Assembly (NCBI GenBank): GCA_002383485.1
Contig: DFYY01000022.1
Span: 91,575-155,574, forward strand
Direction: 5' to 3'
Source of the DNA: Bacteroidales bacterium UBA4070
GTDB taxonomy: Bacteria; Bacteroidota; Bacteroidia; Bacteroidales; VadinHA17
DNA length: 64,000 nt
This document shows positions 3,208 through 19,654 of the stretch, in pieces (within the stretch, counting starts at the first letter, position 1; each line of letters begins with the position of its first letter). Under the pieces are notes generated by a model that was not told the origin of the DNA, ran no database searches, and worked only from the letters and a program-made list of their open reading frames with translations. Both the position numbers and the translations under genes were made by a program.

Positions 3208-3670
3208 TGTGGCTTTAGCCTCACAATATAATGATAGTCAGAAATGTATAACGAAAATAACGGGATTTTCTTCCTCGCCGTATGGCGCCTCGGCCGGACT
3301 CTTTCATCCTGAGTTTACCTTTGCAAATGAATCAGAAATGCTGCTACTCGCAGCATTCACCTTATTTTGATCCATTCGCTCCTGATCTTTGCAGGTCATT
3401 GCTCCTGTTCAAGGATTAAAATGTATAGATGAGTGATGGTGGAATTTTGCCCGGGGATACAGACTAAGACATAAGTCAATGGTTTTGCTGTCAACTGCTT
3501 AGATCATATTATCAAGATCAACCCTGAAGTCGTTATCATCAATATAAAGCGGCCTTGCTTGTCTGATCAGGACTTGAGCTTAGTAAATTTTTCATTAAAT
3601 GATCACTAAATGATACTTTGGTGAAATATTTACTTTTGTGGAAAGATAAATGGTTTTGATAAAAAAAATG

Positions 3671-3745
3671 TTATATATATGATTTTATGCAATAAGTCCA
3701 GAATATAACTATATTTATGCAATTAAATATAGTTTTATGCAGAAT
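3671..3745 (+). repeat. upstream copy of the fic-flanking direct-repeat module (three TTTATGCA boxes)
   Basis: TTTATGCA boxes end at 3691, 3721 and 3741 (spacing 30 and 20 bp), preceded by TATATAT. The module matches 5292-5366 at a constant offset of 1621 bp. Confidence 0.7.
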
Positions 3746-3772: not shown

Positions 3773-5275
3773 ATGTCTGAAAAACCAATTGGAAGTACCT
3801 GGCTAAAACAGCACTATCAACTTTCAAATATTAAATTATCTCATGAATCTTATCTTGGTACAAGATCAAAAGTTGAAATACTGCAGGATGGGACAATTAT
3901 TGACACCTACCAAAAGGCGCAATATAGTCTTAAAGTAGATACTCCGTTAAGCCATTTTGAGTTTGCTCTTAAATATGATGACGTCCAGATGAGCTTTTAT
4001 CAGGCTGTCTTAAAATCTATTCCTGAAACAGATATAGTTGAGTATATTAAATCTGCACCAGGCTCTAAATATTCCAGGAAGATTGGATTTTGGTATGAAT
4101 TTTTAACTGGAGAGCAGCTACCCATTGAAGACAGGCCAAAAATCAACTATATTGATTTAATAGACTCTAAAAGGTATTTTACAGGTTCGATTGTTAAGGA
4201 TACCCGGTGGCGCATAAACAAAAATTTATTGGGTGATGTTGGTTTTTGTCCTACTATTAAGAAAACGGATACTATATCAAAAGCACTTGAACATGATTTT
4301 TCTGAGTCTCTCTGGGAACTCACAAAAAACTATTCTCCTGAAATATTAGCAAGGGCCAATAATTATTTATACAAAAAGGAAACACGTTCATCGTACCAAA
4401 TTGAAAAAGAAGAACCAACACCAGAGCGTATTGAAAGATTTGTTAGTTTATTGAGTAATGCCGGTAAAAAAAATATTAGAGACCTTCTTAGTGAGGAATC
4501 TCTTGTATCTCTACAGAATCAGATTGTCGATCCACGTTTTGCAGCTACAGGTTTCCGGGATTTTCAAAATTATATTGGCCAGACAACATTGAATTATGAT
4601 GAAATAATTCATTACATATGTCCATCACCGGAATTTATTCCGGAGTTAATGAAAGATCTTTCAACTACTGCAATTAATATGGAAGGTGTAAATCCAATTG
4701 TAAAGGCAACTGCTGTAGCTTTTGGATTCGTATTTATACACCCATTTGAAGATGGAAATGGAAGAATTCATAGATTTTTAATTCATGATCTTTTGTCAAG
4801 GGATAATTTCTTACCCACTGGGATGATTATCCCAGTTTCAGCCCATATGGTAAATAATTTGAAACTATACGATGAAGCTCTGGAAGCATATTCTAAACCA
4901 CTTATGCAAATAATTAAATACACAAAAGATAATAAACAAAAATTAAACGTCTTAAATGCTTCCGAAGTTGAAGGATATTATAAGTTCCCAGATCTCACAG
5001 CGCAAACTGAATATTTATGTACAGTAATTGAAACAGCTATCTCCCGGGATCTTCCAAACGAATTAAATTTCCTTCAAAACTATGATGAAGCCAAGGAGTT
5101 AATGAAGCAGAGGATAGATATGCCAGATAAGCTAATAGATTCATTTATCCGATTTACTCATCAGAATAATGGAGTCTTTCCAAAAAGGAGAAGAAGCACC
5201 TTCCATATGCTAAATGATGATGAAATTGAAGCGCTTCAGTCTATTTTCAAGGCTGTCTTTACTTCAGGTAAATAA
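3773..5275 (+). CDS. Fic family protein (AMPylase-type Fic domain)
   Basis: 500 aa with the canonical Fic motif HPFEDGNGRIHR (nt 4739-4774). An upstream inhibitory-helix-like segment, ETRSSYQIEKE, lies at nt 4380-4412. The gene sits in a visibly AT-rich segment. Confidence 0.9.
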   Translation: MSEKPIGSTWLKQHYQLSNIKLSHESYLGTRSKVEILQDGTIIDTYQKAQYSLKVDTPLSHFEFALKYDDVQMSFYQAVLKSIPETDIVEYIKSAPGSKYSRKIGFWYEFLTGEQLPIEDRPKINYIDLIDSKRYFTGSIVKDTRWRINKNLLGDVGFCPTIKKTDTISKALEHDFSESLWELTKNYSPEILARANNYLYKKETRSSYQIEKEEPTPERIERFVSLLSNAGKKNIRDLLSEESLVSLQNQIVDPRFAATGFRDFQNYIGQTTLNYDEIIHYICPSPEFIPELMKDLSTTAINMEGVNPIVKATAVAFGFVFIHPFEDGNGRIHRFLIHDLLSRDNFLPTGMIIPVSAHMVNNLKLYDEALEAYSKPLMQIIKYTKDNKQKLNVLNASEVEGYYKFPDLTAQTEYLCTVIETAISRDLPNELNFLQNYDEAKELMKQRIDMPDKLIDSFIRFTHQNNGVFPKRRRSTFHMLNDDEIEALQSIFKAVFTSGK

Positions 5276-5291
5276 TCAGGGAAGATTATAG

Positions 5292-5366
5292 GTATATATT
5301 TAATTTTATGCTGTGGCCCCTTAAAATATCTAATTTTATGCATTAATATTTGTTTTTATGCAAGAG
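5292..5366 (+). repeat. downstream copy of the fic-flanking direct-repeat module
   Basis: TTTATGCT/TTTATGCA/TTTATGCA boxes end at 5312, 5342 and 5362. The 30/20-bp spacing and orientation match the upstream copy. Confidence 0.7.
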
Positions 5367-5436
5367 CCTCAATAAGTCTGTTTCAGATCTGGCTGTGACT
5401 AATTTTTAATATTTTTATATCAAAACCTGGCATTAT

Positions 5437-5463
5437 GAAAAAAGCCACTGAGTTACAGTGGCT
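5437..5463 (-). terminator. hairpin terminator downstream of tRNA-Asp
   Basis: AGCCACTG-agtta-CAGTGGCT is an 8-bp stem (5443-5463). On the minus strand it is followed by a T-run, 16 nt after the tRNA 3' end. Confidence 0.6.
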
Positions 5464-5478
5464 TATATTTTTCTTTTG

Positions 5479-5553
5479 CGGTGCGGACGGGACTCGAACC
5501 CGCGACCCTCGGCGTGACAGGCCGATATTCTAACCAAACTGAACTACCGCACC
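5479..5553 (-). tRNA. tRNA-Asp (anticodon GTC)
   Basis: The reverse complement reads GGTGCGGTAGTTCAGTTTGGTTAGAATATCGGCCTGTCACGCCGAGGGTCGCGGGTTCGAGTCCCGTCCGCACCG. It folds as a cloverleaf: acceptor GGTGCGG/CCGCACC, anticodon loop CTGTCAC, T-loop TTCGAGT. CCA is not encoded. Confidence 0.9.
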
Positions 5554-5729: not shown

Positions 5730-6794
5730 ATGAAGAATATCTACCTGCAACTGGCAGAATATGAAACCGCAGCAAACGGACTAGTCCTGGCCACAGTAGT
5801 TGCTGCCAGCGGCTCTACACCACAGAAACCGGGAAGCTCCGCCCTTTTTCTCAATGGAAGACTTATTGCCGGTACTATTGGCGGCGGAATAGTCGAAAAT
5901 AAAGTCTCCCTCTATGCTGCCAAATGTGTTGAAGCAAGGGAATCGGCACTGCTCCGGTTCAATCTCGACCTGGATACTGATGATCCGGAAGAGGCAGTAT
6001 GTGGAGGTACATTGTCCATACTTGTTGACAGTGATCCGCTCCGGAGCAGCCAGGTGTTCCGTGAAATGGCAGAGAGTCTGCGTGCATCACGGCCAGGTGT
6101 TCTCGTTACAAGGGTGGTGCCCTGGAATGATTCAACTATCCTGATCAGCAGATGCTGGGCAACTACGGAGTGTGAACCACATGTCCCGGGCAATGACGAC
6201 GACATGATCGCCACAGAGGTAATACAGATGCTCTCGGACGGAGTCCGCGCAGGGTACCACATGCTTGAGATGACAATTCCCGGAGAACAGCACCCCGCAA
6301 CAGTATTCCTTGAACCGGTCTTTCCGCCGCAGCGACTGATCATTGCCGGTGCCGGGCATGTAGGCAGGGCTGTGGCACGCCAGGGCCGCATTCTGGGATT
6401 CGAAGTGACTGTAATTGATGACAGGCATGAATACGCGAACAGCCAGAATCTTCCCGATGCGGACAATATTATCGTTCGCGATATCGGAGAAGCAATGAGG
6501 GAGACGCCAAAGGACTCCGGCACATACATTGTAATCGTGACCCGTGGCCACAGTCATGATGCCGAGGCACTCAGACCCTGCATTGGTTCGGAAGCAGCTT
6601 ATGTAGGAATGATGGGCAGCAAGGTCAAGGTGGCAAAGATGCATGAGGATTTCATCCTGAAAGGCTGGGCAACAGAAGAGCAGTGGGAGCGGATATATAC
6701 GCCGATCGGAATCGATATCGGATCTCAGACAGTGGAGGAGATTGCTGTCAGTATTGCTGCGCAATTGATAATTAAAAGAGGCAACAGGCAGTAG
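5730..6794 (+). CDS. xdhC: XdhC/CoxI family molybdenum-hydroxylase maturation protein
   Basis: The N-terminal XdhC_CoxI-like segment is ATVVAASGSTPQKPGS..GTIGGG. The C-terminal Rossmann-like segment is IIAGAGHVGRAVARQGRILGFEVTVIDDR. I prefer the ATG at 5730 (MKNIYLQ) over the upstream TTG at 5712. Confidence 0.8.
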   Translation: MKNIYLQLAEYETAANGLVLATVVAASGSTPQKPGSSALFLNGRLIAGTIGGGIVENKVSLYAAKCVEARESALLRFNLDLDTDDPEEAVCGGTLSILVDSDPLRSSQVFREMAESLRASRPGVLVTRVVPWNDSTILISRCWATTECEPHVPGNDDDMIATEVIQMLSDGVRAGYHMLEMTIPGEQHPATVFLEPVFPPQRLIIAGAGHVGRAVARQGRILGFEVTVIDDRHEYANSQNLPDADNIIVRDIGEAMRETPKDSGTYIVIVTRGHSHDAEALRPCIGSEAAYVGMMGSKVKVAKMHEDFILKGWATEEQWERIYTPIGIDIGSQTVEEIAVSIAAQLIIKRGNRQ

Positions 6795-6861
6795 AGGGCC
6801 GGGCGTATAGTCCCGACATTGTCTGTCGGGATAGCGAAGGTGCCAGTTTGCAGGGAAGGAG
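6786..6861 (+). repeat. interspersed stop-codon-bearing hairpin element, copy A
   Basis: AGGCAGTAGAGGGCCGGGCGTAT, then hairpin TCCCGAC-attgtct-GTCGGGA (6811-6831), then AGCGAAGGTGCCAGTTTGCAGGGAAGG. Both flanks match copy B at 18416-18487. Confidence 0.65.
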
Positions 6862-6901
6862 TGGGTTTGAGTCAAAAGATTGAAATTAGTCAGGTTATAA
6901 G

Positions 6902-7498
6902 ATGACGCGGATATGGGCCATAGTGTTAGCGGCGGGAGAGTCCAGGAGAATGGGCTCACCGAAAATGCTGCTCCCATACAATGATGTGACAGTGATTGAG
7001 CAGGTTATCCTGAATCTCCTGGATTCTGACATTGACAGGGTGGTGGTTGTGCTTGGAGCCGGCCGGGAGGAGATTATGTCAGTGACGCGCAGGTATGACG
7101 TATTTCACTGCTATAATGAAGATTACAAGTTAGGGATGCTCTCCTCGGTCAAATGCGGCTTCTACTCACTTCCCCGGGGCTGCATCGGTGCACTAATCAT
7201 GCCTGGTGATCAGCCAATGACAGGGCCAGGAGAGATAAACCGCGTTATCCGTACTTTTCTGGAGAGCTGCAAGGGGCTGGTAATGGCGGCACACAATGGC
7301 AAGAGGGGACATCCCCTGATCGTGGACATGAAATATGCGGATGAGGTATTGAATCTCCCGGAGGGTGAAGGATTGAGGGTGCTGGCTGTAAGGCATCCGG
7401 AGGATGTGCTGGAGTCTGATACTGATGATTCGTCTGTGCTGAGAGATATTGACACGCTGGAAGACTATATGAATGAAATTAGTAAAACAAGAGAATGA
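6902..7498 (+). CDS. MobA/MocA-like nucleotidyltransferase (molybdenum cofactor cytidylyltransferase type)
   Basis: The N-terminus WAIVLAAGESRRMGSPKMLLPY is typical of the NTP_transf_3 family. The stop overlaps the next start (ATGA at 7495-7498). Confidence 0.75.
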   Translation: MTRIWAIVLAAGESRRMGSPKMLLPYNDVTVIEQVILNLLDSDIDRVVVVLGAGREEIMSVTRRYDVFHCYNEDYKLGMLSSVKCGFYSLPRGCIGALIMPGDQPMTGPGEINRVIRTFLESCKGLVMAAHNGKRGHPLIVDMKYADEVLNLPEGEGLRVLAVRHPEDVLESDTDDSSVLRDIDTLEDYMNEISKTRE

Positions 7499-7980
7499 TG
7501 GAAGAGACAATCCGGTTCAAGCTTAACGGCAATGAGACGGAGCTGGTTACTGATCCGAACCAGATCCTGCTCTGGGTCCTGAGAAATCATTTTGGCCTTA
7601 CCGGCACCAAATACGGTTGCGGCATAGGCTTCTGTGGCGCCTGCACCGTGCTGATAGACGGAGAGCCGGCCAGATCATGCATGATTCCTGTGAGTGATGT
7701 CGCAGGCAGGAGCGTGGTTACCATAGAGGGTCTGGAGGATGGTGGTGAGCTTCATCCTGTCCAGAAGGCCTTCATTGATCATGATGCCCTCCAATGTGGT
7801 TTCTGCACCCCGGGCATGGTGCTTACTGCGGTGGGGATGCTTGAGAAAAATCCTTCCCCGACACGCGAAGAGATAGTCGCCGGACTGGAAGAAAACCTAT
7901 GCCGGTGCGGGGCTCACAAACGTATTATCGAAGCTGTTGAAGATGCTGCCAGAATAAAAAGGGGAGGGAATGTAAAATGA
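7495..7980 (+). CDS. (2Fe-2S)-binding small subunit of a xanthine dehydrogenase/aldehyde oxidase-family enzyme (IorA-like)
   Basis: Two Cys clusters are present, CGIGFCGACTV and CGFCTPGM..CRCG. The ORF is translationally coupled on both sides. Confidence 0.85.
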   Translation: MMEETIRFKLNGNETELVTDPNQILLWVLRNHFGLTGTKYGCGIGFCGACTVLIDGEPARSCMIPVSDVAGRSVVTIEGLEDGGELHPVQKAFIDHDALQCGFCTPGMVLTAVGMLEKNPSPTREEIVAGLEENLCRCGAHKRIIEAVEDAARIKRGGNVK

Positions 7981-10136
7981 AGAGCATGACTGACAACCAA
8001 AACAGGACCGCACCCCGTCCGGGAATAAAGAGAAGAAGCTTCATCAAGGCACTGGGGGGAGGCATCGTCCTCTTCTTTGCTCCATGGAACGCAATTGATC
8101 TTATGGCGCTGCCTGCACCTCAGCGCCGGAGTCTGACGAAGGACTACAACGCCTTCCTTCATATTGCAACTGACGGTACGGTGAGTTGCTACACGGGAAA
8201 GATAGAGATGGGGCAGGGGATTATCACATCGCTGGCCCAGATGATGGCAGAGGAGCTTAATGTGCCGCTGGCGAAGGTCAAGATGGTGATGGGTGACACG
8301 GATCTGTGCCCCTGGGATGCAGGCACCTGGGGTTCTCTCACCACCAGGGCTTTCGGTCCGGCCATGAGGGCAGCTGCCGCTGAGACAAGGATGGTACTCG
8401 TGCAGATGGCTTCGGAAAAACTGGGAGTCGTGCCTGAAAGACTCGAGGTGACTGACGGTGAGGTATCTGTTTTGGGCGATCCTGCGGTACGCGTTTCCTA
8501 TGCCGAGCTGGCACAGGGAAAGAAAATGGAGAGGTATCTCGAGATAAAGCCTGCTCCGGAAGATTATACAAAGTACACACTGGTAGGCAAGCCGCTTAAG
8601 CACAGCGATGCATATGAGAAGGTTACTGGCAGGGCGAAGTATACCGGTGACCTGAGATTGCCCGGAATGCTTCATGCCCGGATATTGCGGCCCCCGTCAC
8701 ACGGAGCAAAGCTGGTGACGGCAGATCTTTCAGCTGCCGAAGCCATGGAAGGGGTCAGCGTTGTGCGTGAAGGCGATTTCATTGCGGTGCTGAGTGAAAA
8801 CCGTGATCTGGCGGATATCGCTATTGTCAGGATTAGCGCTGAATATTCATCTGATGAGCTTAATGTAGACAACTCTACTGTATTTGATCACATAAACAGG
8901 GGAGAGTACAGGCCCAACGTCGTGCGCAACGACGGAGATGTGGAGCTTGCAGCACCGCAGTGCGGAAGTCTGTTTGAGCACGAGTATCATGACCCCTATC
9001 TTGCGCATGCACCGATAGAGACACACACTGCTCTCGCAAACTTCGAGGATGGGAAGGTGACGGTCTGGGCCTCTACTCAGTCGCCTTTCGGCTTGCAGGA
9101 TACAATTGTCATGGAATTGGGTATGAGCCTTGAGACAGTGAGGGTGATCACTCCGTTTGTTGGCGGCGGTTTCGGAGGAAAGAGTCCGTCGCAGCAGGGT
9201 GTGGAGGCTGCGAGGCTGGCACGTTTGACCGGTAAGCCTGTGATGGTAGCCTGGACACGTGAGGAGGAGTTCTTCTATGATGCATTTCACCCCGCTTCTG
9301 TGGTAAAGGTAAAATCGGGCACAGACAGTGAAGGGAAGATAATGATGTGGGACTATAACGTCTACCTGGCCGGCACCCGCGGTGCTGATGTGATATATGA
9401 TGTCCCCAACGCCAGGGTCACGAGCCACAGCGAGGACAGGTCAAAGTACAGGGTTCATCCCTTCGCCACCGGTGCATGGCGTGCCCCGAACAACAACACG
9501 AACACCTTCGCCAGGGAGACGCAGATTGATATTATGGCCGCAGCAGCCGGGACTGATCCACTGGAATTCAGGCTCAGGAACCTGAAGGATGAGAAGATGA
9601 AAGGGGTCCTCAGGGCGGTAGCTGACAAATTCGGGTATGAACCGGGAAAGACGCCCTCAGGCAGGGGCATTGGCATAGCATGCGGTACCGATGCCGGCAC
9701 CTGGGTGGCATTCATGGCAGAGGTATCCGTTGACAGGACGACTGGCGCAGTAAGAATTGTCCGCCTCGCATGCGCACAGGATATGGGTCTGTGTGTCAAT
9801 CCGCAGGGAGCACTGCTCCAGATGGAGAGTTGCCTGACGATGGGCATGGGTTATACTCTGACAGAAGAGGTGAAGTATGTTGGCGGCGATGTGAAAGACA
9901 GGAACTTTGACAATTATTCCATTCCGAAGTTTTCATGGCTCCCGAAACTTGAATGTGTCATAATGGACAGGCCTGACCAGCCTTCGCAGGGAGGAGGAGA
10001 ACCTGCGATTATCGGAGTGGGAGCGGCGGTAGGCAATGCCATCTTTGATGGCACCGGCGCAAGGCTTTTCAGAGTGCCTTTTACACCGGAGAGGGTGATG
10101 GAGGCCATGGAAAAGTCGGAAGGTCGGAAGGTCTGA
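7977..10136 (+). CDS. molybdopterin-binding large subunit (IorB-like) with a Tat-type signal
   Basis: 719 aa. The N-terminal twin-arginine motif is KRRSFIKALGGG. GQG-type Moco-binding segments are present (KIEMGQGIITS). Its start overlaps the 2Fe-2S subunit stop. Confidence 0.8.
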   Translation: MKSMTDNQNRTAPRPGIKRRSFIKALGGGIVLFFAPWNAIDLMALPAPQRRSLTKDYNAFLHIATDGTVSCYTGKIEMGQGIITSLAQMMAEELNVPLAKVKMVMGDTDLCPWDAGTWGSLTTRAFGPAMRAAAAETRMVLVQMASEKLGVVPERLEVTDGEVSVLGDPAVRVSYAELAQGKKMERYLEIKPAPEDYTKYTLVGKPLKHSDAYEKVTGRAKYTGDLRLPGMLHARILRPPSHGAKLVTADLSAAEAMEGVSVVREGDFIAVLSENRDLADIAIVRISAEYSSDELNVDNSTVFDHINRGEYRPNVVRNDGDVELAAPQCGSLFEHEYHDPYLAHAPIETHTALANFEDGKVTVWASTQSPFGLQDTIVMELGMSLETVRVITPFVGGGFGGKSPSQQGVEAARLARLTGKPVMVAWTREEEFFYDAFHPASVVKVKSGTDSEGKIMMWDYNVYLAGTRGADVIYDVPNARVTSHSEDRSKYRVHPFATGAWRAPNNNTNTFARETQIDIMAAAAGTDPLEFRLRNLKDEKMKGVLRAVADKFGYEPGKTPSGRGIGIACGTDAGTWVAFMAEVSVDRTTGAVRIVRLACAQDMGLCVNPQGALLQMESCLTMGMGYTLTEEVKYVGGDVKDRNFDNYSIPKFSWLPKLECVIMDRPDQPSQGGGEPAIIGVGAAVGNAIFDGTGARLFRVPFTPERVMEAMEKSEGRKV

Positions 10137-10157
10137 AGGTCAGAAGGTCAGAAGGGC
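10118..10157 (+). repeat. tandem 8-bp repeat (NGAAGGTC, 5 units) spanning the stop codon of the Mo subunit
   Basis: GGAAGGTC GGAAGGTC TGAAGGTC AGAAGGTC AGAAGGGC. The TGA stop at 10134-10136 is the start of unit 3. Confidence 0.8.
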
Positions 10158-10243
10158 GGGAATCCTGAAGTTCCTGCCAGTGGGAAGGAGAAGAAGAGAC
10201 CGAAACGCCGCAGAATCCGAAAGGCGTGAGACAAATAAAAAAA

Positions 10244-10280
10244 GGAGGGAAGCCGTTAAGGCAACCCTCCTTTTAATTTT
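10244..10280. terminator. bidirectional hairpin terminator between convergent genes
   Basis: GGAGGG (10244-10249) pairs with CCCTCC (10265-10270). An A-run lies upstream and TTTTAATTTT downstream. It sits between the Mo subunit (+) and susD-like (-) stops. Confidence 0.6.
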
Positions 10281-10294
10281 AAGTTATACGCAGG

Positions 10295-11737
10295 TTATCT
10301 GCCGGCAGTGTACCATGAGTTCTGCTCAAGCAGGTCATTGACCTCCATCTCGCGGAAAGGAATCGGGAGAATCAGGTTGCCTGCATTGTAGGCATCGGTG
10401 CCGACGTTCGACTTCCACCTTTTAAGGTCATGAAGCCTGTGTCCTTCCCAGCAGAGTTCGAGGTATCTCTCTTCCCTGATCTGTTCCCTGGTAACATCAG
10501 TTGTGTAAAGAGGAGCATTAGCCCTGCCACGGATTTTGTTGATATCCTGTGTCGGGGTGTTCGGACCTATGTCAGTTGCAGGGTCCTCGAAATTGGCTTC
10601 TGCTCTGATAAGATACATTTCAGCCAGCCTGATGAGAGGAATATTCCTGTAATAGTCACCCCACTTGGCAGTGTTGATGCCACCCTTGTTCAGGATAGTT
10701 CCTACTCCCTTGTAGTACATCATTGTGATGTTGTCTATGGTGTATCCGGTCTCGGTATTTGACTGGTAGCGGCCGCGAAGGTCAGAGCCATTGAATCTGT
10801 CAAGGAAGACCTGCTGCACCTCGTAGTCGCCACGGCCCGCACTTGCCAGTGATGCATACATTACCGGCAGCCAGCTGATTGCGGAGGTCATGTTCTTCTG
10901 AATTGCGAAGATGTCCTCGGGTGAATTCTCAGCGTTATTGAATGCTTCCAGTGGTGTTGCCGTCAGGTCGAAGAGGCCGTTCTGTATTACCCTGTCGGCT
11001 TCCGTTGCTGCCGACGCCAGGTTGCCCATCTGCAGGTAAAGCCTTGCAAGCACGGCGCTTGCACTCATTGAAGAGGCATAGACATCATTGGCGTCAGGAA
11101 GCAGACCGCGTGCAGCAGTCAGGTCTTCAATCGCCTGGGCATAGCAGTCCTCGACGGTGTTTCTGGCCACCGGTACTGCGTCTGCGACATCGCTGGTGGG
11201 GGTAAGTACAAGAGGAATACCCAACTGGTTATTCGGTTGGTTCGGCTCATAAGGTAGTCCGAAGAACCGGGTCATCTCGAAGATGGTCCAGCCCCTGAGG
11301 AAGAGCGCTTCACCCTTCACTAAGTCAGCATCATCTGCATCAAGCAATGCAAGGACATCTTCCTGCAGCAGAGTGTTGCAGGTGTTGATGAGGCTGTATG
11401 CCTCGGTCCAGGTGTATTCCACATAGCTGTTGGTGGTAGTAGCTTCTTTCCTGTAGAATTCGCGGGGCTGCTCATAGGTGCCCATGAATCTCATATCGGT
11501 GGTGGCAGCATAAAGCTCGCTGTACTCATTAAAATATGATCCGAATATACCGTCGCTGCTGGCCTGCAGGTAAGCACCCACAAGTGCTGCCTTGATGTTG
11601 TCAGGCGTTGTAAGAGCCACCTCGGCATCAATTGACTGTTTTGGCTTGATCTCAAGCTTTTCCGTACACGAAACGAGCATTGCCAATACCGGAACAATCA
11701 AGATCCAGAATTTGTATTTGTTTATCGTATTTTTCAT
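10295..11737 (-). CDS. SusD/RagB family nutrient-binding outer-membrane lipoprotein
   Basis: 480 aa. The lipoprotein signal is LVSCTEK. The sequence is TPR-like and SusD-typical, and the gene lies immediately downstream of a SusC-type gene. Confidence 0.85.
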   Translation of the reverse strand: MKNTINKYKFWILIVPVLAMLVSCTEKLEIKPKQSIDAEVALTTPDNIKAALVGAYLQASSDGIFGSYFNEYSELYAATTDMRFMGTYEQPREFYRKEATTTNSYVEYTWTEAYSLINTCNTLLQEDVLALLDADDADLVKGEALFLRGWTIFEMTRFFGLPYEPNQPNNQLGIPLVLTPTSDVADAVPVARNTVEDCYAQAIEDLTAARGLLPDANDVYASSMSASAVLARLYLQMGNLASAATEADRVIQNGLFDLTATPLEAFNNAENSPEDIFAIQKNMTSAISWLPVMYASLASAGRGDYEVQQVFLDRFNGSDLRGRYQSNTETGYTIDNITMMYYKGVGTILNKGGINTAKWGDYYRNIPLIRLAEMYLIRAEANFEDPATDIGPNTPTQDINKIRGRANAPLYTTDVTREQIREERYLELCWEGHRLHDLKRWKSNVGTDAYNAGNLILPIPFREMEVNDLLEQNSWYTAGR

Positions 11738-11755
11738 GACTATTGGTATTTAGCG

Positions 11756-14700
11756 TTAGAATGAGAGATTTATACCAAGAGTATAGGTCCTTGCCTGCGG
11801 AGCAGTATAGAAATCATATCCCTGGATGATGTTGTTGTTCTGCGTTGAACGTCCGGCACCAAGGTAGTTGACCTCAGGGTCCCATCCCTTGTATTTGGTG
11901 AGCGTATAGAGGTTCTGCACCCCGAGGTAAACCCTTACAGAAGTCATGTTAAGACGTGCGGTAAGGCTTTTCGGCAGGGTGTAGCCGAGGTTGATGTTCC
12001 TGAATCTGACATATGATCCGTCAGAGAGATAACGGCTTGAAACCTTTGTGCCGTTTCCGTCACCGAGGCGTGCCTGGGGTACATCAGTGATGTCACCCGG
12101 ATTCTGCCATCTGTCAAGCTGATCAATAGTCTGGTTGTCAAACCAGTCACCGTTGGCCGACTGATAAACGCCACCGCCGTTGTAGATCTCATTTCCGTAT
12201 ACAAAGCTGATGAGCACATTCAGGTCAACGCCGGCGAACTCGAAGTAGTTGTTGAAGCCTCCCGTAAAGTCAGGGTTCGGGGAGCCGCAGATCTGCTTTT
12301 CTGCCAGGTTGTAGTTATTCGTAGTCTCATCACTGTCTGCGCTCAGATAGTACAGTGCGTCGCCGTTGTCCGGGTCAACGCCTGCATATTTTACAATTTT
12401 GAACACTCCGATGGGCTGTCCTTCAATCACGTAGTTTATGGAGTTGGGAGTGATCTCGGGGCCGTTGATGTCGATGATTGTATTCTTGTTGAATGCCAGG
12501 TTGAAATCGGTTGTCCAGATAAGTCTGCCGGAGAGATTGTTTGAGTGGAGGGCGAATTCAACACCCTTGTTCTCAAGTTCTCCCACGTTGCTCCATACAC
12601 CTTCGAAGCCTGAAGTGGCGGGAAGGGTCCTGTAGAGAAGCAGGTCAGTGGTTCTTTTCTGATACCAGTCAAATTCACCGGTGAGCCTGTTGTTGAAGAA
12701 GCCGAAATCAAGACCGATGTCAAGCTGGGCTGTATTTTCCCATCCCAGTTCCCTGCTTTGAAGCTGTGTGACTTCAAGACCTGTGCGTCCGGCGTAATTA
12801 ACACCTGAGTAGAGTGCCAGGTGCGCATAGTCTGGAATTCCCGAGTTTCCGGTAATGCCGTAGCTGGCTCTTACCTTCAGGTAGCTGAGCACATCCTTGA
12901 TGCCAGCCATGAAGTCTTCCTGCGATATAATCCAGCCTGCTGATCCAGCTGGGAAGAAGCCAAAGCGGTTATCAACGCCGAACCTTGATGAGCCGTCTAC
13001 GCGGCCGCTGAGCGTAAAGAAGTACTTCTCATTGATCTTGTAATTGGCACGGGCAAAGTAGGAGAGATATGATGTTGCCTCTTCCCATCCGCCGTATGAT
13101 GTTACTTCAGCTGCATTGTCGATGTTTGTGAAGTCATCTGTCGGGAATCCCTTGCCGATTATGTCAGAGCCGATGCTGTTAGACTGCTGGTATGACATGC
13201 CGCCCACAAGGTTGATGTGGTGCACGCCCAGTGTCTTGATATAGGTAAGGTAGTTTTCCCAGTTGTAGTTGATAACCCTGACCGAGCGGTTCTGTGCTTC
13301 GCCGGCAGGTCCGCCGGTGATTGTTTTTCTTCCCCAGAAGTTCTTCTCGCGCAGGTCATATATGTCAGTTCCGAACTCACTCTTGAAGGTAAGATCCTTG
13401 ATGATGTTATATGCTGCGTAGATGTTTGCGAGCGATCTGAAGGAGGTCTGGTTGTTGGTTTCGTCCCTGAGTGAGATGAGGCCGTTATAGTATATCGTCT
13501 CAGTGTTCAGTTCACCTGTTTCCGGATCATAGACCGGGGTGAGGGGTGACTGTGCGACCAATTGGAGAGGGGTTGCAAATGCGTTGTCATTCTGAACCCT
13601 TTCCATCTCGGTGCGGATGACGTTCATCTGCATCCCGAAGCTGAATTTGTCAGTTGCCTGCTGGTCAAGGTTAAGCCTTGCGCTCATCTTGTTCATGTTG
13701 TTACCGCGGAGGATACCCTTGGTATCGTCATAGGCGAGGCCGGCATAGAACCTGGTTTTGTCAGTACCGCCTGAACCGGATACGTTTATCCTGTTAAGTG
13801 ATCCCTTCTGGAATGCTTCCTTTTGCCAGTCTGTATCGAAGCCGTCATCCCAAACCGGTCCTACATACATTTCCCAGATGTCTTCTTTTGGCAGCCACTC
13901 CCAGACGAGTCCGTCAACTGTGACGTTATCCATTGATTCATTGAACAGCTCAAGGTACTGATCAGCGTTCAGCCACTGAACCAGGTGACTCGGTTCACTG
14001 ATCCCTGTTGTATACTGTACATCAAATTTCGTTGCACCCGCCTTACCTCTCTTGGTCTGGATGATCACAACGCCGTTGGAGGCTCTGGAGCCGTAGATTG
14101 CTGCGGCTGATGCATCCTTGAGGATCTGTATTGACTCCACATCGGTCATTGCCAGGTCAGCAAGCGGGCTGGTAGGCTGGTTGCCTGAGTTGGAGAGGTT
14201 CTCTGCAGTGATAGGGACGCCGTCAACCACATAGAGCGGCTGGTTATTAGCTGATACTGAGGATGATCCGCGAATTCTCATTTTTACGGTTTCGCCCAGC
14301 TTACCGCTGGCCTGTTCGATGAAAACACCGGAGGTTTTTCCCTGTATTGCTGACTCAAAGCTGGCCACCGGTACTTCGGCAATACCCTTGGTCTCTACCT
14401 TGGTAATTGCTCCGGTAAGCTCTCTCTTAATGGCTGAGCCGTAACCGACGACAATAACCTCGTCGAGGCCAACGTCGTCAAGCTCCAGCGTCACATCGAT
14501 AATATTCCTGTCACCGACAAGAACCTCCAGTGACTTCATCCCCACAAACCTGAAGACCAGTATGCTTCCCGGATCTGCTGAGATGGTGTACTTTCCGTTA
14601 AGGTCAGTCACTGTACCGACAGATGTTCCCTTAACCAGGACCGTTGCCCCGATAACGGGAAGGCCGTCACTTTTGTCTGTGATCGTTCCTGTAACTGTTT

Positions 14701-14767
14701 TCTGCTGTCCGAAGGCAGAAAAGACCAGAGTACAGATGATCAGACTTGTTAAAAGTAATTTTCTCAT
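11756..14767 (-). CDS. SusC/RagA family TonB-linked outer-membrane protein
   Basis: 1003 aa with a CarboxypepD_reg-like N-terminus (VTGTITDKSDGLPVIGATVLVKGT). The plug motif is ILKDASAAAIYGSRASNGVVIIQTKRGK. The C-terminus ends ..INLSF. Confidence 0.9.
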   Translation of the reverse strand: MRKLLLTSLIICTLVFSAFGQQKTVTGTITDKSDGLPVIGATVLVKGTSVGTVTDLNGKYTISADPGSILVFRFVGMKSLEVLVGDRNIIDVTLELDDVGLDEVIVVGYGSAIKRELTGAITKVETKGIAEVPVASFESAIQGKTSGVFIEQASGKLGETVKMRIRGSSSVSANNQPLYVVDGVPITAENLSNSGNQPTSPLADLAMTDVESIQILKDASAAAIYGSRASNGVVIIQTKRGKAGATKFDVQYTTGISEPSHLVQWLNADQYLELFNESMDNVTVDGLVWEWLPKEDIWEMYVGPVWDDGFDTDWQKEAFQKGSLNRINVSGSGGTDKTRFYAGLAYDDTKGILRGNNMNKMSARLNLDQQATDKFSFGMQMNVIRTEMERVQNDNAFATPLQLVAQSPLTPVYDPETGELNTETIYYNGLISLRDETNNQTSFRSLANIYAAYNIIKDLTFKSEFGTDIYDLREKNFWGRKTITGGPAGEAQNRSVRVINYNWENYLTYIKTLGVHHINLVGGMSYQQSNSIGSDIIGKGFPTDDFTNIDNAAEVTSYGGWEEATSYLSYFARANYKINEKYFFTLSGRVDGSSRFGVDNRFGFFPAGSAGWIISQEDFMAGIKDVLSYLKVRASYGITGNSGIPDYAHLALYSGVNYAGRTGLEVTQLQSRELGWENTAQLDIGLDFGFFNNRLTGEFDWYQKRTTDLLLYRTLPATSGFEGVWSNVGELENKGVEFALHSNNLSGRLIWTTDFNLAFNKNTIIDINGPEITPNSINYVIEGQPIGVFKIVKYAGVDPDNGDALYYLSADSDETTNNYNLAEKQICGSPNPDFTGGFNNYFEFAGVDLNVLISFVYGNEIYNGGGVYQSANGDWFDNQTIDQLDRWQNPGDITDVPQARLGDGNGTKVSSRYLSDGSYVRFRNINLGYTLPKSLTARLNMTSVRVYLGVQNLYTLTKYKGWDPEVNYLGAGRSTQNNNIIQGYDFYTAPQARTYTLGINLSF

Positions 14768-14875
14768 GTTCTGTAATGATTTAGAGTTAGATAAATGAAA
14801 TAATAATAATATAGACCGCTAAAATATCTTTGTGTGGCATTTAGATCATTGAACAAATGTAAAAAAATGTTAAAA

Positions 14876-15448
14876 TTAATCATTGGTCGCTGAATTTATG
14901 GTAACATGCGGGCTTGCTAAACAAAAGAAAGAAAAATTAACATTTCCGTATTTTCTGTTTTCAGTGAAGAATTTTTCGTGACTGAAATCATATGCAGCCG
15001 GGTGTTCCAGGATGAAAAGGGTGGATTCACTCACCGCCTCTGAGCTGAGAATCATATCGGGGATCTCCGCCAGCCATTTCAGTGCATAGGGAGGATCAGC
15101 AAAGATGATATCATACTTTTTATGGCAAATTTTCAGCCAGTCGCGCACATCCAGGCGGTGAACCTTTGCAGATTCAAATCCGAAGCTGCGGATTGTTTTG
15201 CTGATGAATTCACAGTTCCGTCTCTCGGTTTCCACTATATCGATATCCCTGGTTCCTCTTGAGGCGAACTCGTAGCTGATGGCTCCGGTTCCGCCGAAGA
15301 GGTCAAGCAGTGAGACTTCAAAAAAGTCATATCGGTTGTTAAGGATATTCATCAGCCCCTCTCGGGCGAAGTCAGTTGTTGGCCTTGCCCTGAATCCTGC
15401 CGGCGGCTCGATGAGCCGTCCCCTGAAGTTACCACCTGTTATTCGCAC
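14876..15448 (-). CDS. rsmD: 16S rRNA (guanine966-N2)-methyltransferase RsmD
   Basis: The N-terminus is MRITGGNFRGRLIEPP..RPTTDFAREGLMNIL. The SAM-binding segment is DLFGGTGA and the catalytic motif is FADPPY. Confidence 0.85.
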   Translation of the reverse strand: MRITGGNFRGRLIEPPAGFRARPTTDFAREGLMNILNNRYDFFEVSLLDLFGGTGAISYEFASRGTRDIDIVETERRNCEFISKTIRSFGFESAKVHRLDVRDWLKICHKKYDIIFADPPYALKWLAEIPDMILSSEAVSESTLFILEHPAAYDFSHEKFFTENRKYGNVNFSFFCLASPHVTINSATND

Positions 15449-16299
15449 GAAGCAGCAGTAAAAAGGTTAAGCCAGCGATGCAGCTGCACTTCGTTCATGA
15501 CATAGCTGAAGCTCTGTCTTATTACGGGTGATGCGAACCTGACATTATGGGCAAATGAGAGGAGTGCAATGTGTGCTTCGCCATAAGGTTCCACGGTGCC
15601 GCTGACAAGTATTGTTTCATCATGGCGTATCCCATTCCTGTCCATCACGCTGAACAGATAATAGGCGCCGTCCTGAGGTGAAGAAGTGGCGAAGCTGTTG
15701 CAGAATGTAAGGTTTCGCTTTTCAGCCGTTATCACGGTTACAAAATCCTTTTCGAAGTGAATATGCACATAGCAGCCGTCGTTTGTGCGGCAAACCGCAG
15801 AGACATGGCTCAGCAGCGGTTTGGTATGGTGCCACGGTGAGATTTCGCGCCAGCGGGCGGGGATGCTTTCAGTCACCTCCCTTGAAGGCGAAAAGAGTAC
15901 GACTGCATCCGGAAACGGGAGAGAATTAGATACAATAACACCACAGTCAGCCGTGCTGAAGTTAAAACGGAAGTAATCTTCGCGGAGGCCATTCTCATAC
16001 ACGGCTGCCGGAATCAGCGTCGCGTTCAGCGAAGGAGCAATAATGAAGACTTTCCTGTAGCGTCTCATAAGAAAGTCATCGGCTTCGATTATCTCTGCAA
16101 ATCTCCTTCCGGTTGTTACAGATTCATCATCGTGCGGATAGTGTCTGAGCATGACATACTTGTCCCGAAGGAGATCAAGCACGGCAAAAGAGACACCCTC
16201 TTCAGAAAGCTCCAGTGTAAGGTCGTAATTGTCAGTCGCGTTAATGTTGAGGGTCTCGTCGATAAGTTCCAGGGGATATGGCTGCGACCTGGCCATCAA
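15439..16299 (-). CDS. DUF3822-like protein
   Basis: 286 aa. The N-terminal pattern is YDLTLELSEEGVSFAVLD, and the position directly upstream of rsmD is as I recall it in Bacteroidota. Assigned from memory, not by search. Confidence 0.5.
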   Translation of the reverse strand: MMARSQPYPLELIDETLNINATDNYDLTLELSEEGVSFAVLDLLRDKYVMLRHYPHDDESVTTGRRFAEIIEADDFLMRRYRKVFIIAPSLNATLIPAAVYENGLREDYFRFNFSTADCGVIVSNSLPFPDAVVLFSPSREVTESIPARWREISPWHHTKPLLSHVSAVCRTNDGCYVHIHFEKDFVTVITAEKRNLTFCNSFATSSPQDGAYYLFSVMDRNGIRHDETILVSGTVEPYGEAHIALLSFAHNVRFASPVIRQSFSYVMNEVQLHRWLNLFTAASCE

Positions 16300-16931
16300 T
16301 CCTCCCAGTTCCCGGCGTTGTTGTTGGGCACCCTGACGTCGCCAACCTTCATGCCCGGGAATCCCGTGATCTTTGTCCTTTGATCGTTGTAGTTGACTAC
16401 AAGCTGCCTGTCGAGATCACTCAGGAAAACATCATTGAGCGCATAGGCTTCAAATACGTTTACAAGCACCATGGAGGTGGTCATTACCCTTGCGGCTGAC
16501 ATCTGGAATTCTGTTTTTCCCATTCCCGGGATATACCTCAGCTGATCAATAGGATAGCCTTTGTCGAATATTGAATCACGGACGGGGATGTAGCTTGTAT
16601 CCCTGCTGATCAGGCCTTTCTTAACGGCTTCTTTTTCAGTTGTGATGCCTGCAGCAATCATCTCATCGGTGAGTGAACCGCGCTTGAATACAAGGGGCAG
16701 GGAATCAGTCTCAAGGAAGGTTATCAGGGTGTCAAAGCTGCCGGTATAGTATCCTTTAACTGATTTAAAGGCTTCCTGTGCAGTCCTGATGTCAATAAGC
16801 CTCTCCTTTATTGCAGCTTCCCTTGCATCCTTCTCCTTGTTGAAGCGGATGGGTTTCATGATGCTTTCCACAAGAAAATATGCGAGCACAACAATGATAA
16901 TACTAAATGCGATGTTGAGAGCCGTTTTCAT
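16296..16931 (-). CDS. hypothetical membrane-anchored protein
   Basis: 211 aa with a single N-terminal TM helix (IAFSIIIVVLAYFLV). It is translationally coupled to the DUF3822-like gene. Confidence 0.5.
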   Translation of the reverse strand: MKTALNIAFSIIIVVLAYFLVESIMKPIRFNKEKDAREAAIKERLIDIRTAQEAFKSVKGYYTGSFDTLITFLETDSLPLVFKRGSLTDEMIAAGITTEKEAVKKGLISRDTSYIPVRDSIFDKGYPIDQLRYIPGMGKTEFQMSAARVMTTSMVLVNVFEAYALNDVFLSDLDRQLVVNYNDQRTKITGFPGMKVGDVRVPNNNAGNWED

Positions 16932-17008
16932 GTCTTTTGAACGATTGTTGAGTAACTTTGTGCAAATTTATAAAAAAAGCAGACTGTTATCCGGTTTGTC
17001 AAAATAAA

Positions 17009-18424
17009 ATGAGACAGGAGAACATCCATTCATTGCTATCGAAAAACCTTGGAAATATCCCGACACAGGATCAGTCTGACTGCATGAGGATGCTTGCAGG
17101 CTTCGTTTCCGACAATACAAATGATGTCATCTTTCTGCTGAAGGGTTACGCAGGAACCGGCAAGACCAGCCTGATAGCATCGCTGGTGACCACTCTTGAT
17201 ACCCTGAGGCAAAAGTCAGTATTGCTGGCCCCAACCGGCAGGGCGGCGAAGGTGTTGCGCTCATACACCGGAAAGGAGGCCTGGACAATCCACCGTAAGA
17301 TCTACAGGCAGAAGTCGGCAACTGATGGCGTGGGTAAGTTCGTCCTTGACCGCAACCTGCACAAGAATACATATTTTATAGTTGATGAGGCCTCCATGAT
17401 CCCGGATGAGTCATCTGAAGCTTCGATTTTCGGCAGTGGCAGGCTGCTGGAGGATCTCCTGGAATATGTGTACACGGGAACTGACTGCAAGCTTATACTT
17501 GTCGGGGATGTGGCACAGTTGCCACCCGTCGGGGCGATTGTCAGTCCTGCCCTTGATGAAGATGTTCTGCGAGCGACCGGTTTTGCCCTTCAGACATTTG
17601 AGTTAAGGCAGGTGATACGGCAGAGCGAAGGGTCGGGAATACTTATGAATGCCACTGCTGTAAGGCAGCAGGTCAGCGACGGAGACCTGTCAGTGCCGGA
17701 GCTGATACTCGATGGGTACGGTGATATTGAGCGACTGGGAGGAGCCGAGCTGATTGAGCGGTTGTCTGAGTCATACGACAGGTGCGGCACTGATGGCGCC
17801 ATAGTGGTGGTCAACTCGAACAACCTGGCGAACCGGTATAACCAGGGTATCCGGAGCCGGGTCTTCTTCAGGGAGGAAGAGATCAGCACTGGAGATATAG
17901 TTATGGTAGTCAAGAACAATTACTATTGGCTGAAGGATGATGACAATGCCTCGTTCATTGCCAACGGGGACATAGCAGAGGTAAAAAGGATAAGGAGATA
18001 TGGGGAGATGTACGGGATGCGTTTCGCAGACATGACTCTCTATTTTCGCGACTCGGAGATGGAGGTTGAGGCGAAGGTGAATCTTGACACTCTTATGATG
18101 AGTACCCCGTCTCTCTCACCGGAGAAGTCGCGTGAGCTTTATTTTGCAGTTCTGGCTGATCATCCGGGCATAAAATCCAAGAGAAAGCAGTACGAGGCTG
18201 TAAGGGATGATCCTTATTACAATGCACTGCAGATCAAGTTTGCCTATGCAGTGACATGTCACAAATCGCAGGGGGGGCAATGGGAGCGGGTTTTCATCGA
18301 TCAGGGCATGTTCAACCGGCAGGAACCGACAATCGATTATCTCCGGTGGTTCTATACCGCGCTTACCAGGGCTACGGAGAGAGTTTACCTTGTGAATTTC
18401 CCGGATAGTTATTTCAGGCAATAG
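17009..18424 (+). CDS. RecD-like (SF1) ATP-dependent DNA helicase
   Basis: Walker A is GYAGTGKTS and Walker B is YFIVDEASM. The C-terminal UvrD_C_2-type motif is YAVTCHKSQGGQWERVF. I prefer the ATG at 17009 (MRQENIH). Confidence 0.8.
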   Translation: MRQENIHSLLSKNLGNIPTQDQSDCMRMLAGFVSDNTNDVIFLLKGYAGTGKTSLIASLVTTLDTLRQKSVLLAPTGRAAKVLRSYTGKEAWTIHRKIYRQKSATDGVGKFVLDRNLHKNTYFIVDEASMIPDESSEASIFGSGRLLEDLLEYVYTGTDCKLILVGDVAQLPPVGAIVSPALDEDVLRATGFALQTFELRQVIRQSEGSGILMNATAVRQQVSDGDLSVPELILDGYGDIERLGGAELIERLSESYDRCGTDGAIVVVNSNNLANRYNQGIRSRVFFREEEISTGDIVMVVKNNYYWLKDDDNASFIANGDIAEVKRIRRYGEMYGMRFADMTLYFRDSEMEVEAKVNLDTLMMSTPSLSPEKSRELYFAVLADHPGIKSKRKQYEAVRDDPYYNALQIKFAYAVTCHKSQGGQWERVFIDQGMFNRQEPTIDYLRWFYTALTRATERVYLVNFPDSYFRQ

Positions 18425-18487
18425 AGGGCCTGGCGTATGAAAATGACCCGGCGGGTCATTTTAGCCAGGAGCCAGATTGCAGGGAGG
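18416..18487 (+). repeat. interspersed stop-codon-bearing hairpin element, copy B
   Basis: AGGCAATAGAGGGCCTGGCGTAT, then hairpin AAAATGACCC-ggc-GGGTCATTTT (18440-18462), then AGCCAGGAGCCAGATTGCAGGGAGG. Flanks match copy A but the hairpin sequence differs. Confidence 0.65.
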
Positions 18488-18505
18488 CCAGTATGCAATA
18501 GCGGA

Positions 18506-19144
18506 ATGACTATCTTTGCGCTTTCGCTGACCGGTGGAACTTACCTATAACCTCACCTACCGCAAAATTTTTCTCTTCTGGTGACCATTGGCGCTGACAT
18601 GGCTGATGAGTCTCTTGCGGTGCTCCCTGTTGTAGGTTCACTTGTTTTCATCTTCAGGAGCCTTGGATTGTCATACCAGGAGGTGAATATTGCCCTGATT
18701 GGCAAGCAAAAACAGAACTACCGGCTGTTAAGGAATTTTGCAGTTTACATGGGAGTGGCAGTAACTGTACTGATATCCATCCTTGCACTCACCCCGCTGG
18801 CCGACCTGTGGTTCATTAATATCTCCGGGCTGAGCCAGGAACTGGCGGATTTGTCATATCTCCCCCTGAAAATTATGATACTTTTGCCGGCCTTTACCGT
18901 CCTGCTGAACTATCAGAGATCACTGCTTCTCATCAACCGCACAACTGGTCCTATATCGGCAGCAATGGCGGTTGAGCTGGTATCAATAATTGTAATATTG
19001 CTGGTCTGCGTGGTTCTCCTTGACATGACCGGGGTGGTTGCTGCCGCTCTTGCCTTTACGGCTGGCAAAGGTATTTCAACCCTCTGTCTTTTGCCACGCC
19101 AGTCAGCTGCGGTAAGAGGCTGGCGGTCACAGGCAGGCCGCTGA
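18506..19144 (+). pseudogene. remnant of a multi-pass membrane transporter (MATE/flippase-like), internally deleted and frame-broken
   Basis: An N-terminus-like fragment, ELTYNLTYRKIFLFW-TGA-PLALTWLM, lies in one frame. A C-terminal four-helix portion lies in another (18581-19144, ..ESLAVLPVVGSLVFIFRSLGLSYQEVNIALIG..). No intact start is present. The family call is tentative. Confidence 0.5.
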
Positions 19145-19609: not shown

Positions 19610-19654
19610 AGCAACCGGCATCCGGAAGAAGGGCAGGTAGGGGTGATTTATTGC

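Follow-up and report, generated by a model that had tools for sequence, protein, structure and literature searches.

Which kind of sequence makes two unrelated genes of one bacterium end in the same two codons and the same stop, and what is the hairpin that follows them? This question is raised by a stretch of 64,000 nt from Bacteroidales bacterium UBA4070 (GCA_002383485.1, contig DFYY01000022.1, positions 91,575–155,574 of the forward strand), hereafter called the window, in which a preliminary description made from the sequence alone had proposed two copies of an interspersed element, one after xdhC and the other after a gene for a RecD-like helicase. Both copies were found where that description had placed them, with the following cores:

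Positions 6783–6862, plus strand: copy A, core element of ~80 nt between xdhC and a mocA-like gene.

Positions 18413–18491, plus strand: copy B, core element flanked by the RecD-like helicase gene and by what remains of a gene for a 471-aa membrane protein.

The likeness of copies A and B is confined to these ~80 nt, over which 81% of the columns are identical. The 5' block that had been described as common to both, AGGCARTAGAGGGCCKGGCGTAT (23 nt), occurs in the window only at 6786 and 18416 when up to three mismatches are allowed, with 0.00 occurrences expected from shuffles, and the 3' block GCCAGWTTGCAGGGA is likewise limited to copies A and B. Covariance models, run with filters off, scored copy A at 96.1 bits and copy B at 97.1 bits when built from the two window copies (R1), and at 94.9 and 85.3 bits, respectively, when built from nine sequences (R2). 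No third copy emerged from the covariance scan of the window, the next best match reaching 13 bits with R1, in agreement with R2. The sole match of the window in Rfam 15 at the gathering score was a tRNA at 5479–5553, with nothing at the element, and a search of both loci at E ≤ 10 returned just spurious matches to eukaryotic long non-coding and small nucleolar RNAs. The window also matches contig DDXJ01000066.1 of a Bacteroidales metagenome-assembled genome (MAG; GCA_002347145.1), and near-identical contigs derive from anaerobic-culture metagenomes.

Related loci (designated by L and a number) were fetched via homologues of XdhC and of the helicase, and share with the window the synteny of the xdhC, mocA-like, Fer2, MoCoBD, SusD, SusC, helicase and YjbQ genes. 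The existence of further copies in relatives, on which the preliminary description had made its proposal depend, was borne out by seven members in related Bacteroidales MAGs, located at the junctions of xdhC with the mocA-like gene and of the helicase gene with the transporter gene, in the 5' leader of one tryptophanase gene and at another site. The xdhC/mocA-like junction carries the core in L052 (87.9 bits), L055 (71.1), L054 (69.7) and L050/L051 (59.5), while at the helicase site the orthologue of copy B was found in L056 (11405–11491, 59.2 bits), and copy B itself is identical in L048. L052 contains two members, L052a and L052b, the latter being divergent and located at 9461–9538, 3' of a PAP2 gene; the tryptophanase member lies at 3610–3688 (minus strand) of L041, from a MAG titled Rikenella sp. 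Block counts, model scores and these further members confirm that copies A and B are a genuine interspersed, conserved and uncatalogued noncoding element of an uncultured Bacteroidales group, whose family is absent from Rfam.

Wider searches added little to this census. An exact pattern, which is too strict in that it fits only three of the nine known members, gave 25 matches among 185,579 species genomes (one per species), L041 alone being a true member and the remaining 24 chance or coding matches, several of which lie in a conserved coding stretch common to L022, L024, L029 and L030 (putative RtcB-like). A candidate of 26 bits in an Eisenbacteria MAG (L040, 5232–5321), with the block order AGAGGGCCGGGCGUAU, hairpin, GCCCGG and GCCAG, stands in a context of 73% G+C and is probably a chance match. 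The strict exact pattern recovered copy B only from the metagenomes, an exact 5'-block scan of viral contigs produced 14 matches that were all due to chance as judged by the covariance model, and blastn against plasmids and phages gave no match. With the nine-member model, no further copy was detected in 309 kb of sequence, and none extra in the ~245 kb of related loci.

At the centre of each copy stands an apical hairpin:

Positions 6810–6832, plus strand: A-type apical hairpin of copy A, GUCCCGACA / UGUCGGGAU with a 5-nt loop, from the fold and pair counts.

Positions 18440–18462, plus strand: B-type apical hairpin of copy B, AAAAUGACCC / GGGUCAUUUU with the loop GGC, from the fold.

Both hairpins comprise 9 bp, have equal length and occupy the same alignment register, and in five of the nine pairs both partners differ between the copies. 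The B-type is also present in L041, L050, L054 and L056, and a length surplus of 7 and 8 nt was seen in the hairpins of L050 and L056, respectively. The claim that this hairpin keeps its structure while its sequence varies holds for the whole family: in the nine-member alignment, which was itself fitted to the model, 96% of the cells of the apical helix (P4) are paired, and eight of its nine pairs are changed on both sides. When the partners were slid by one to three columns, overall pairing fell from 83% to 23–41%, and the observed covariation score was reached by none of 500 shuffles, so that the pairing of P4 is strongly supported by covariation. Besides P4, the proposed rod contains the helices P1 (GCARU/RUUGC), P2 (GGCC/G.GCC) and P3 (CGU/GCG), and its arms hold ~50 invariant nucleotides, internal loops included. 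The helix cells contain ~24 G-U combinations versus five A-C/C-A, an excess that favours pairing on the sense (plus) strand.

Scans for other signals at the element were negative. Neither copy was listed in a terminator scan, the A-type stem being followed by UAGCG and the four U's of the B-type lying inside the stem; a scan for sigma-70-type promoters gave nothing at the element, and an informal inspection by eye for Bacteroidetes −33/−7 and sigma-54 motifs found no proper spacing. A leader peptide starting from an AUG in the B-type hairpin (an open reading frame (ORF) of 37 aa in the window and of 30 aa in L041) was considered and rejected, its frame being lost in L056 and the A-type having no AUG. 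For the 3' arm, long-range pairing with sequence further downstream was convincing in L052b only. At that locus (L052, 9400–9745), a hairpin of A-type stem sequence, GUCCCGAC...GUCGGGAC, precedes the member, and on its 3' side there follow a segment complementary to the 3' arm of the member itself (CUCUCCUCC...CCCUGCAA) and two terminator-like hairpins; judging from this arrangement, the region could be an independent small transcript.

The common gene ends from which the question started have a separate source, namely short tandem repeats at the 5' edge of the core:

Positions 6778–6798, plus strand: three heptamers at the edge of copy A, GAGGCAA CAGGCAG TAGAGGG, encoding the XdhC end G-N-R-Q and TAG.

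Positions 18415–18428, plus strand: two heptamers at the edge of copy B, CAGGCAA TAGAGGG, encoding the final R-Q of the helicase and TAG.

Both proteins do end in RQ, with TAG stops at 6792–6794 (XdhC) and 18422–18424 (helicase), but the proposal that the element supplies these last codons and the stop has to be modified. Their source is the array of tandem AGGCARN heptamers directly 5' of the core, read as ...GGC AAC AGG CAG TAG, and not the core. XdhC of L062, whose gene is separated from the mocA-like gene by UAGGCAG heptamers alone, ends in GSRQ*, and the helicase of L057, which keeps CAGGCAR heptamers only, ends in GNRQ*; since these core-less orthologues retain the tails, and since the xdhC stop codon of L050 precedes the core, it is the heptamers that provide the last codons and the stop. 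The preliminary description had taken such endings in core-less orthologues as a sign that the shared 5' block would be coincidental; the endings are there, and the core itself is still real.

The heptamers are arranged head-to-tail in variable copy number, with two to three units in the window, four in L050, L057 and L062, and ~12 in L055, where they fill positions 11072–11140 between the xdhC stop and the core (GCAATAG GCAGAAG ...), with NAG at the end of nine of the 11 units read. The motif AGGCARNAGGCAR occurs seven times in the window against 1.56 expected, and in most members AG dinucleotides follow a 7-nt period in the 5' flank and another 7-nt phase in the 3' arm. The heptamers account for the G-x-R-Q ending observed in 16 of 120 XdhC homologues and for the GNRQ or GIRQ of four helicase homologues, whose arrays are longer. 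In L041 the heptamer string stands in a non-coding context (GGCAAUUGGCAGCAGAGGG). The phosphoglucomutase gene pgm, which ends on the minus strand at 19651–19667 with ...AGGCTGTAGGCAATAA (units ...AGGCTG TAG GCAATAA), is a third gene of the window with its stop codon inside a heptamer-like motif.

With respect to genes, the position of the core is consistent. Eight of the nine members lie on the sense strand shortly before a start codon; in the seven for which the gap was measured, L056 not being among them, the distance from the core end to the next start is 39 nt in copy A, 38 in L050, 39 in L054, 27 in both L052a and L055, 40 in L041 and 42 in copy B, the last one running to a conserved GTG. 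Downstream of copy A this gap is occupied by the following feature:

Positions 6863–6901, plus strand: A/U-rich spacer between the core of copy A and the ATG of the mocA-like gene at 6902, unpaired in the consensus fold.

The spacer is 79% identical to that of L050, while four-fold synonymous sites are 31–45% identical. In L041, the core stands in a divergent intergenic region ahead of a tryptophanase gene (NCBIfam TnaA, 803 bits); the adjacent gene upstream is divergent, and only a putative leader ORF of 24 aa was found ~130 nt upstream. Core and downstream gene go together at the helicase site: L056 carries the core along with the gene for the 471-aa membrane protein, intact at 11429–12844, and both are missing from L057 and L058. 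In the window this gene is degraded:

Positions 18534–19144, plus strand: degraded gene 3' of copy B, with GTG at 18534, an in-frame TGA at 18582–18584, and ~690 nt deleted and the frame changed relative to L056.

Its C-terminal part persists as a 187-aa ORF (18581–19144), 74% identical to residues 293–469 of the L056 protein. The 471-aa protein had no match in Pfam, NCBIfam or PDB, one homologue touching Pfam ANKH at E = 1e-4, and belongs to a membrane-protein family of about 1000 representatives for which Pfam and NCBIfam have no model.

Whether the core is under selection can be judged against the neighbouring genes. Core identity amounts to 88% between the window and L052 and to 90% between L055 and L052, while four-fold synonymous sites in xdhC, the mocA-like gene and Fer2 are only 25–45% identical when the window (or L055) is compared with L052, L050 and L054 and hence near saturation, which indicates conservation beyond the neutral rate. 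Orthologous copies also share site-specific substitutions and flanks (copy B with L056, L050 with L054, and the spacers of copy A and L050), and these common flanks point to vertical descent. However, the loop motif CCGGCNGGCGG, absent from copies A and B, L052a, L054 and L055 and present as a remnant in the decayed L053 copy, is common to L050 and L056, which are paralogues in one species, and the orthologous xdhC site carries discordant hairpin types, A-type and B-type. Both facts suggest gene conversion between copies, a process that can mimic purifying selection.

Our preferred reading, which we hold tentatively and at slightly under even chances, is that the element, vertically inherited and under selection, is a structure of the sense-strand RNA that acts in cis and is recognised by a factor. 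What the data show is the repetition of the element, its conservation beyond the neutral rate, the covariation of the hairpin, the strand bias and the position relative to genes; the low copy number, the signs of vertical descent, the joint presence of core and downstream gene at the helicase site, the unstructured spacer and the 5' location in L041 also speak for this reading. That the element is transcribed, that a factor binds it and that expression is affected, we infer from these features. Under such a scheme, the module of ~80 nt would be read as part of an mRNA on the sense strand and folded as one irregular rod, and the UAG of the heptamers would end the upstream frame and thereby keep the structure free of ribosomes. 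The core would act in cis on the next cistron, that is, the mocA-like gene with the Mo-hydroxylase subunits, the ANKH-like membrane transporter or, in a single genome, tryptophanase. Since ~50 nucleotides of the arms, internal loops included, are invariant, we propose that a trans-acting factor, which might be a protein or a small ligand, docks on the arms in a sequence-specific manner; once bound, this factor may set the fate of the mRNA of the downstream cistron, through processing, stability or read-through. P4 would serve as a structural clamp only, free to change its sequence as long as it still pairs.

Several observations weigh against this proposal. Apart from the signs of conversion mentioned above, P1–P3 are nearly invariant, so that covariation neither supports nor contradicts them, and the first version of helix 3, with only 52% of its cells paired, had to be dropped; the fitting of the alignment to the model likewise counts here, and the ~4 independent loci with three hairpin types amount to few independent covariation events. 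The core has decayed at the xdhC site of L053 and is absent from that of L062, copy B is intact ahead of a pseudogene, and L052b has no close co-oriented downstream gene. Upstream of tnaA the core is missing in three of four species, namely at the three tnaA loci syntenic with L041, and the association with tnaA was therefore discarded as a conserved trait. Finally, the predictions gave neither an expression platform nor a terminator, nor a start codon hidden by pairing, the consensus fold leaving both spacer and start codon unpaired.

Among the alternatives, the most serious, although we regard it as unlikely, is a palindromic repeat of the ERIC/IRU (enterobacterial repetitive intergenic consensus/intergenic repeat unit), Correia or REP (repetitive extragenic palindromic) kind, non-autonomous and low in copy number, which would insert or recombine in the heptamer arrays of gene boundaries and be passively co-transcribed, the likeness between copies resulting from recent spread or conversion. 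Presence and absence do vary at all three orthologous sites, the core being absent in L062, L057, L058 and L059–L061 and decayed in L053; both hairpin types at the xdhC site, and a loop motif common to paralogues and not to the intact orthologous copies examined, would also be expected from it. The element is an imperfect palindrome overall, with a short terminal complementarity (GCAAU...AUUGC), and it is known that ERIC-type units can become joined to gene 3' ends and take the place of the stop codon (PMC2759123). On the other hand, only two copies are present in 64 kb, and the lack of extra ones in ~245 kb of related DNA makes a poor fit to a dispersed selfish repeat; the single true match among the species genomes, found with a pattern that fits three of nine members, and the lack of matches in plasmid, phage and viral collections argue in the same direction. 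No target-site duplication was visible on comparing filled and empty sites (copy A with L062, copy B with L057), upstream of tnaA the intergenic DNA of L041 is too divergent from that of L059 and L061 to resolve insertion boundaries, and the terminal complementarity is limited to 5 bp (GCARU/RUUGC) instead of long terminal inverted repeats. The site-specific flanks of orthologous copies, as signs of vertical descent, also disagree with recent spread. The idea that the element might be a REP or a MITE (miniature inverted-repeat transposable element) in high copy number is not supported, in view of the low copy number in the sequence covered, the lack of target-site duplication and a GTAG tag that is not conserved: GTAG precedes AGAGGG in copy A only and lies just upstream of the core in L050, while other members have AATAG, GGAG or GCAG.

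An aptamer of a metabolite-binding riboswitch, controlling a small regulon of the Mo-hydroxylase operon, an exporter-like protein and tryptophanase, appears improbable. It would account for the gathering of conserved nucleotides in internal loops around a variable peripheral hairpin and for the consistent 5' location relative to genes, and a heterocycle theme could link the downstream genes. Nevertheless, the missing expression platform, the occurrence ahead of tnaA in one of four species, the loss of the element from otherwise intact xdh operons (L053, L062), the lack of similarity to any Rfam family and the very narrow taxonomic range all speak against it.

The 7-nt phases could instead suggest a target for a ring-shaped, HutP-like antiterminator that reads NAG triplets 7 nt apart, with the faces GAG-N4-CAG-N4-UAG in the 5' heptamers and AAG-N4-CAG-N4-CAG in the 3' arm, whose binding would remodel the rod between them; we give it little credence. 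In the hut terminator of Bacillus subtilis, which lies downstream of a stop codon and ahead of the next start, HutP recognises two sites of three XAG triplets each, separated by 4-nt spacers, that flank a stem (PMC2425495), and an analogous pair of sites with three NAG triplets and 4-nt spacers is complete in copy A, L052a, L055 and L050 and partial in copy B, L056, L054, L041 and L052b. The AG phases on both sides of the rod in most members, the NAG that ends nine of the 11 L055 heptamers read, and the hairpin surpluses of 7 nt in L050 and 8 nt in L056 fit the idea. Its weak points are the incomplete NAG phase in copy B, L041, L054 and L052b, a linker of ~43 nt compared with 12–17 nt in Bacillus (PMC2425495), and an A-type hairpin that does not resemble a terminator; moreover, the periodicity may simply come from heptamers generated by slippage.

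We attach as little weight to a 3'-end element of the upstream gene, either an intrinsic terminator or a hairpin blocking 3' exonucleases, although the element abuts or overlaps the xdhC and helicase stop codons, the B-type hairpin shows an A-tract/U-tract arrangement and hairpins of the REP type are known to stabilise upstream mRNA (PMC3733652). The A-type has no U-tract, neither copy was called terminator-like, and canonical terminators are used elsewhere in the genome, for example at 10230–10275; besides, ~50 invariant arm nucleotides far exceed the needs of a generic stability hairpin. A purely 3'-end role, one of the options in the preliminary description, is not supported, in view of L041, where the core stands in the tryptophanase 5' leader with no co-oriented full-length gene upstream, and of the location of every strong member 27–42 nt before a start codon. 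Least probable of all is a DNA-level recombination or attachment site, for although direct repeats bracket the 11.6-kb segment from 6783 to 18491 with the xdh genes, SusC/D and the helicase, and L058 lacks the portion with xdh and SusC/D, the G-U pairs point to single-strand pairing on one strand, the hairpins of copies A and B differ in a way that attL/attR cores would not, the segment contains no recombinase gene and keeps its synteny in seven species, and the L041 copy is solitary.

Taking the cis-acting RNA structure further, one might picture the core as the sensor domain of a previously undescribed class of regulatory RNA limited to anaerobic Bacteroidales, bound by a small heterocyclic metabolite or by a multimeric protein that reads heptads, and co-ordinating the Mo-hydroxylase operon with an ANKH/MOP-type exporter and, in some species, tryptophanase, while the heptamer stop array would end translation and keep the sensor ribosome-free. 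As a whole we consider this extended picture rather improbable.

A third copy, thought to follow the stop of the Mo-subunit gene at 10150–10190, did not hold up: neither model hit it, the nearest match being 10111–10163 with 8.8 bits (E = 4.6), and the segment shares with the core just the short strings TGCCAGT and GGGAAGGAG. What lies there is a different repeat:

Positions 10115–10159, plus strand: octamer tandem repeat, not a copy of the element, GTCGGAAG in 5.6 units (Tandem Repeats Finder), overlapping the stop codon of the Mo-subunit gene.

Octamer arrays were found at the end of the Mo-subunit (MoCoBD) gene in all nine species compared (the window, L051–L057 and L062), with ~2 to ~10 units, mostly GGTCTGAR/AGTCTGAA, and the repeat supplies the MoCoBD stop in eight of them, the ORF of L054 reading past it. 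In L051 and L056 a small hairpin, UCCGCCAGCUGGCGGA, lies inside the array and the purine tract GGGAAGGAGAAGAAGA follows. The octamer array with its hairpin parallels the heptamers with their core in architecture. In the same operon, no MoCoBD gene was called at 13047–14819 of L050, whereas L051, with an identical XdhC, has a gene of 721 aa at 11129–13294, and the missing call in the L050 MAG contig may reflect a frameshift or an assembly problem.

Two other neighbourhoods deserve mention. Upstream of tnaA, a short ORF is kept in three species (L059, 9775–9850; L061, ~9855–9945; L041, ~3810–3860, minus strand) with synonymous-type changes (...N-R-K-L-I/R-F-R/Q-N-I-K-N-R-D-A-F), and as far as its sequence suggests, it is a candidate for a TnaC-like leader peptide of the Bacteroidales tryptophanase; three AAATCG(C/T) heptamers stand directly before the tnaA ATG. 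Upstream of xdhC, the neighbourhood of the tRNA gene (5479–5553, minus strand) varies by strain and species (window 3773–5553; L002, L004 and L053), with a Fic-domain gene in the window, an integrase fragment in L004, an integrase and ~10 unknown genes in L053 and small unknown ORFs in L002. This tRNA-adjoining region, 3773–5553, looks like a tRNA-linked integration hotspot.

To our knowledge, Bacteroidetes largely lack Shine-Dalgarno-led initiation, Hfq and ProQ. If functional, the element would add an uncatalogued structured RNA motif in a phylum whose post-transcriptional control is poorly known, and would point to a small regulon centred on a molybdenum hydroxylase, itself uncharacterised, of organisms from anaerobic digesters; if it is only a low-copy palindromic repeat, the finding is an ordinary one. 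The window also offers a clean example of tandem repeats with stop triplets that rewrite the ends of proteins as unrelated as XdhC, the RecD-like helicase, phosphoglucomutase and the Mo subunit, a fact that matters for gene calling and for the comparison of orthologues in metagenome-assembled genomes.

Known repeats share parts of this architecture. ERIC/IRU, in the form of RU-1, can become joined to ORF 3' ends, adding C-terminal residues together with a new stop (PMC2759123). Like the present element, it is an imperfect palindrome in intergenic regions, transcribed in the case of ERIC, which may be present or absent at orthologous sites; unlike it, ERIC measures 127 bp, is found in many copies per genome and in Enterobacteria only, and has no leading heptamer array, while the element is low in copy number and owes its coding overlap to the heptamers and not to the palindrome. 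REP sequences are hairpin-forming repeats mostly located downstream of coding regions and are probably RNA elements, and, together with the bacterial interspersed mosaic elements (BIMEs), they are built on a palindrome of 20–40 bp, one end of which bears a conserved tag, GTAG or CGTC, that is unpaired (PMC3733652); they reach high copy numbers, tens to hundreds per genome, and are mobilised by REP-associated tyrosine transposases (RAYTs), whereas the conserved unit described here comprises ~80 nt. As for HutP, the resemblance concerns the layout only, given the longer linker, the A-type stem that is no terminator and the imperfect NAG phase. In Porphyromonas gingivalis, the MITE BrickBuilt is likewise an intergenic element of Bacteroidales in which tandem short repeats are combined with conserved flanking subunits (PMC4596501), but its repeats are of 23 nt, its ends are inverted repeats, 19 elements occur per genome and it has promoter activity. 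The array itself resembles the TAACTGA heptamer repeats known from Beggiatoaceae, from Cyanobacteria and from a few Bacteroidetes, one Bacteroidales species among them (PMC4679880). These and the cyanobacterial short tandemly repeated repetitive (STRR) sequences are also tandem intergenic heptamers, oriented with the downstream ORF, near starts and variable in copy number; in contrast to them, the array described here has AGGCARN as its unit, overlaps the upstream stop and is coupled to a structured core.

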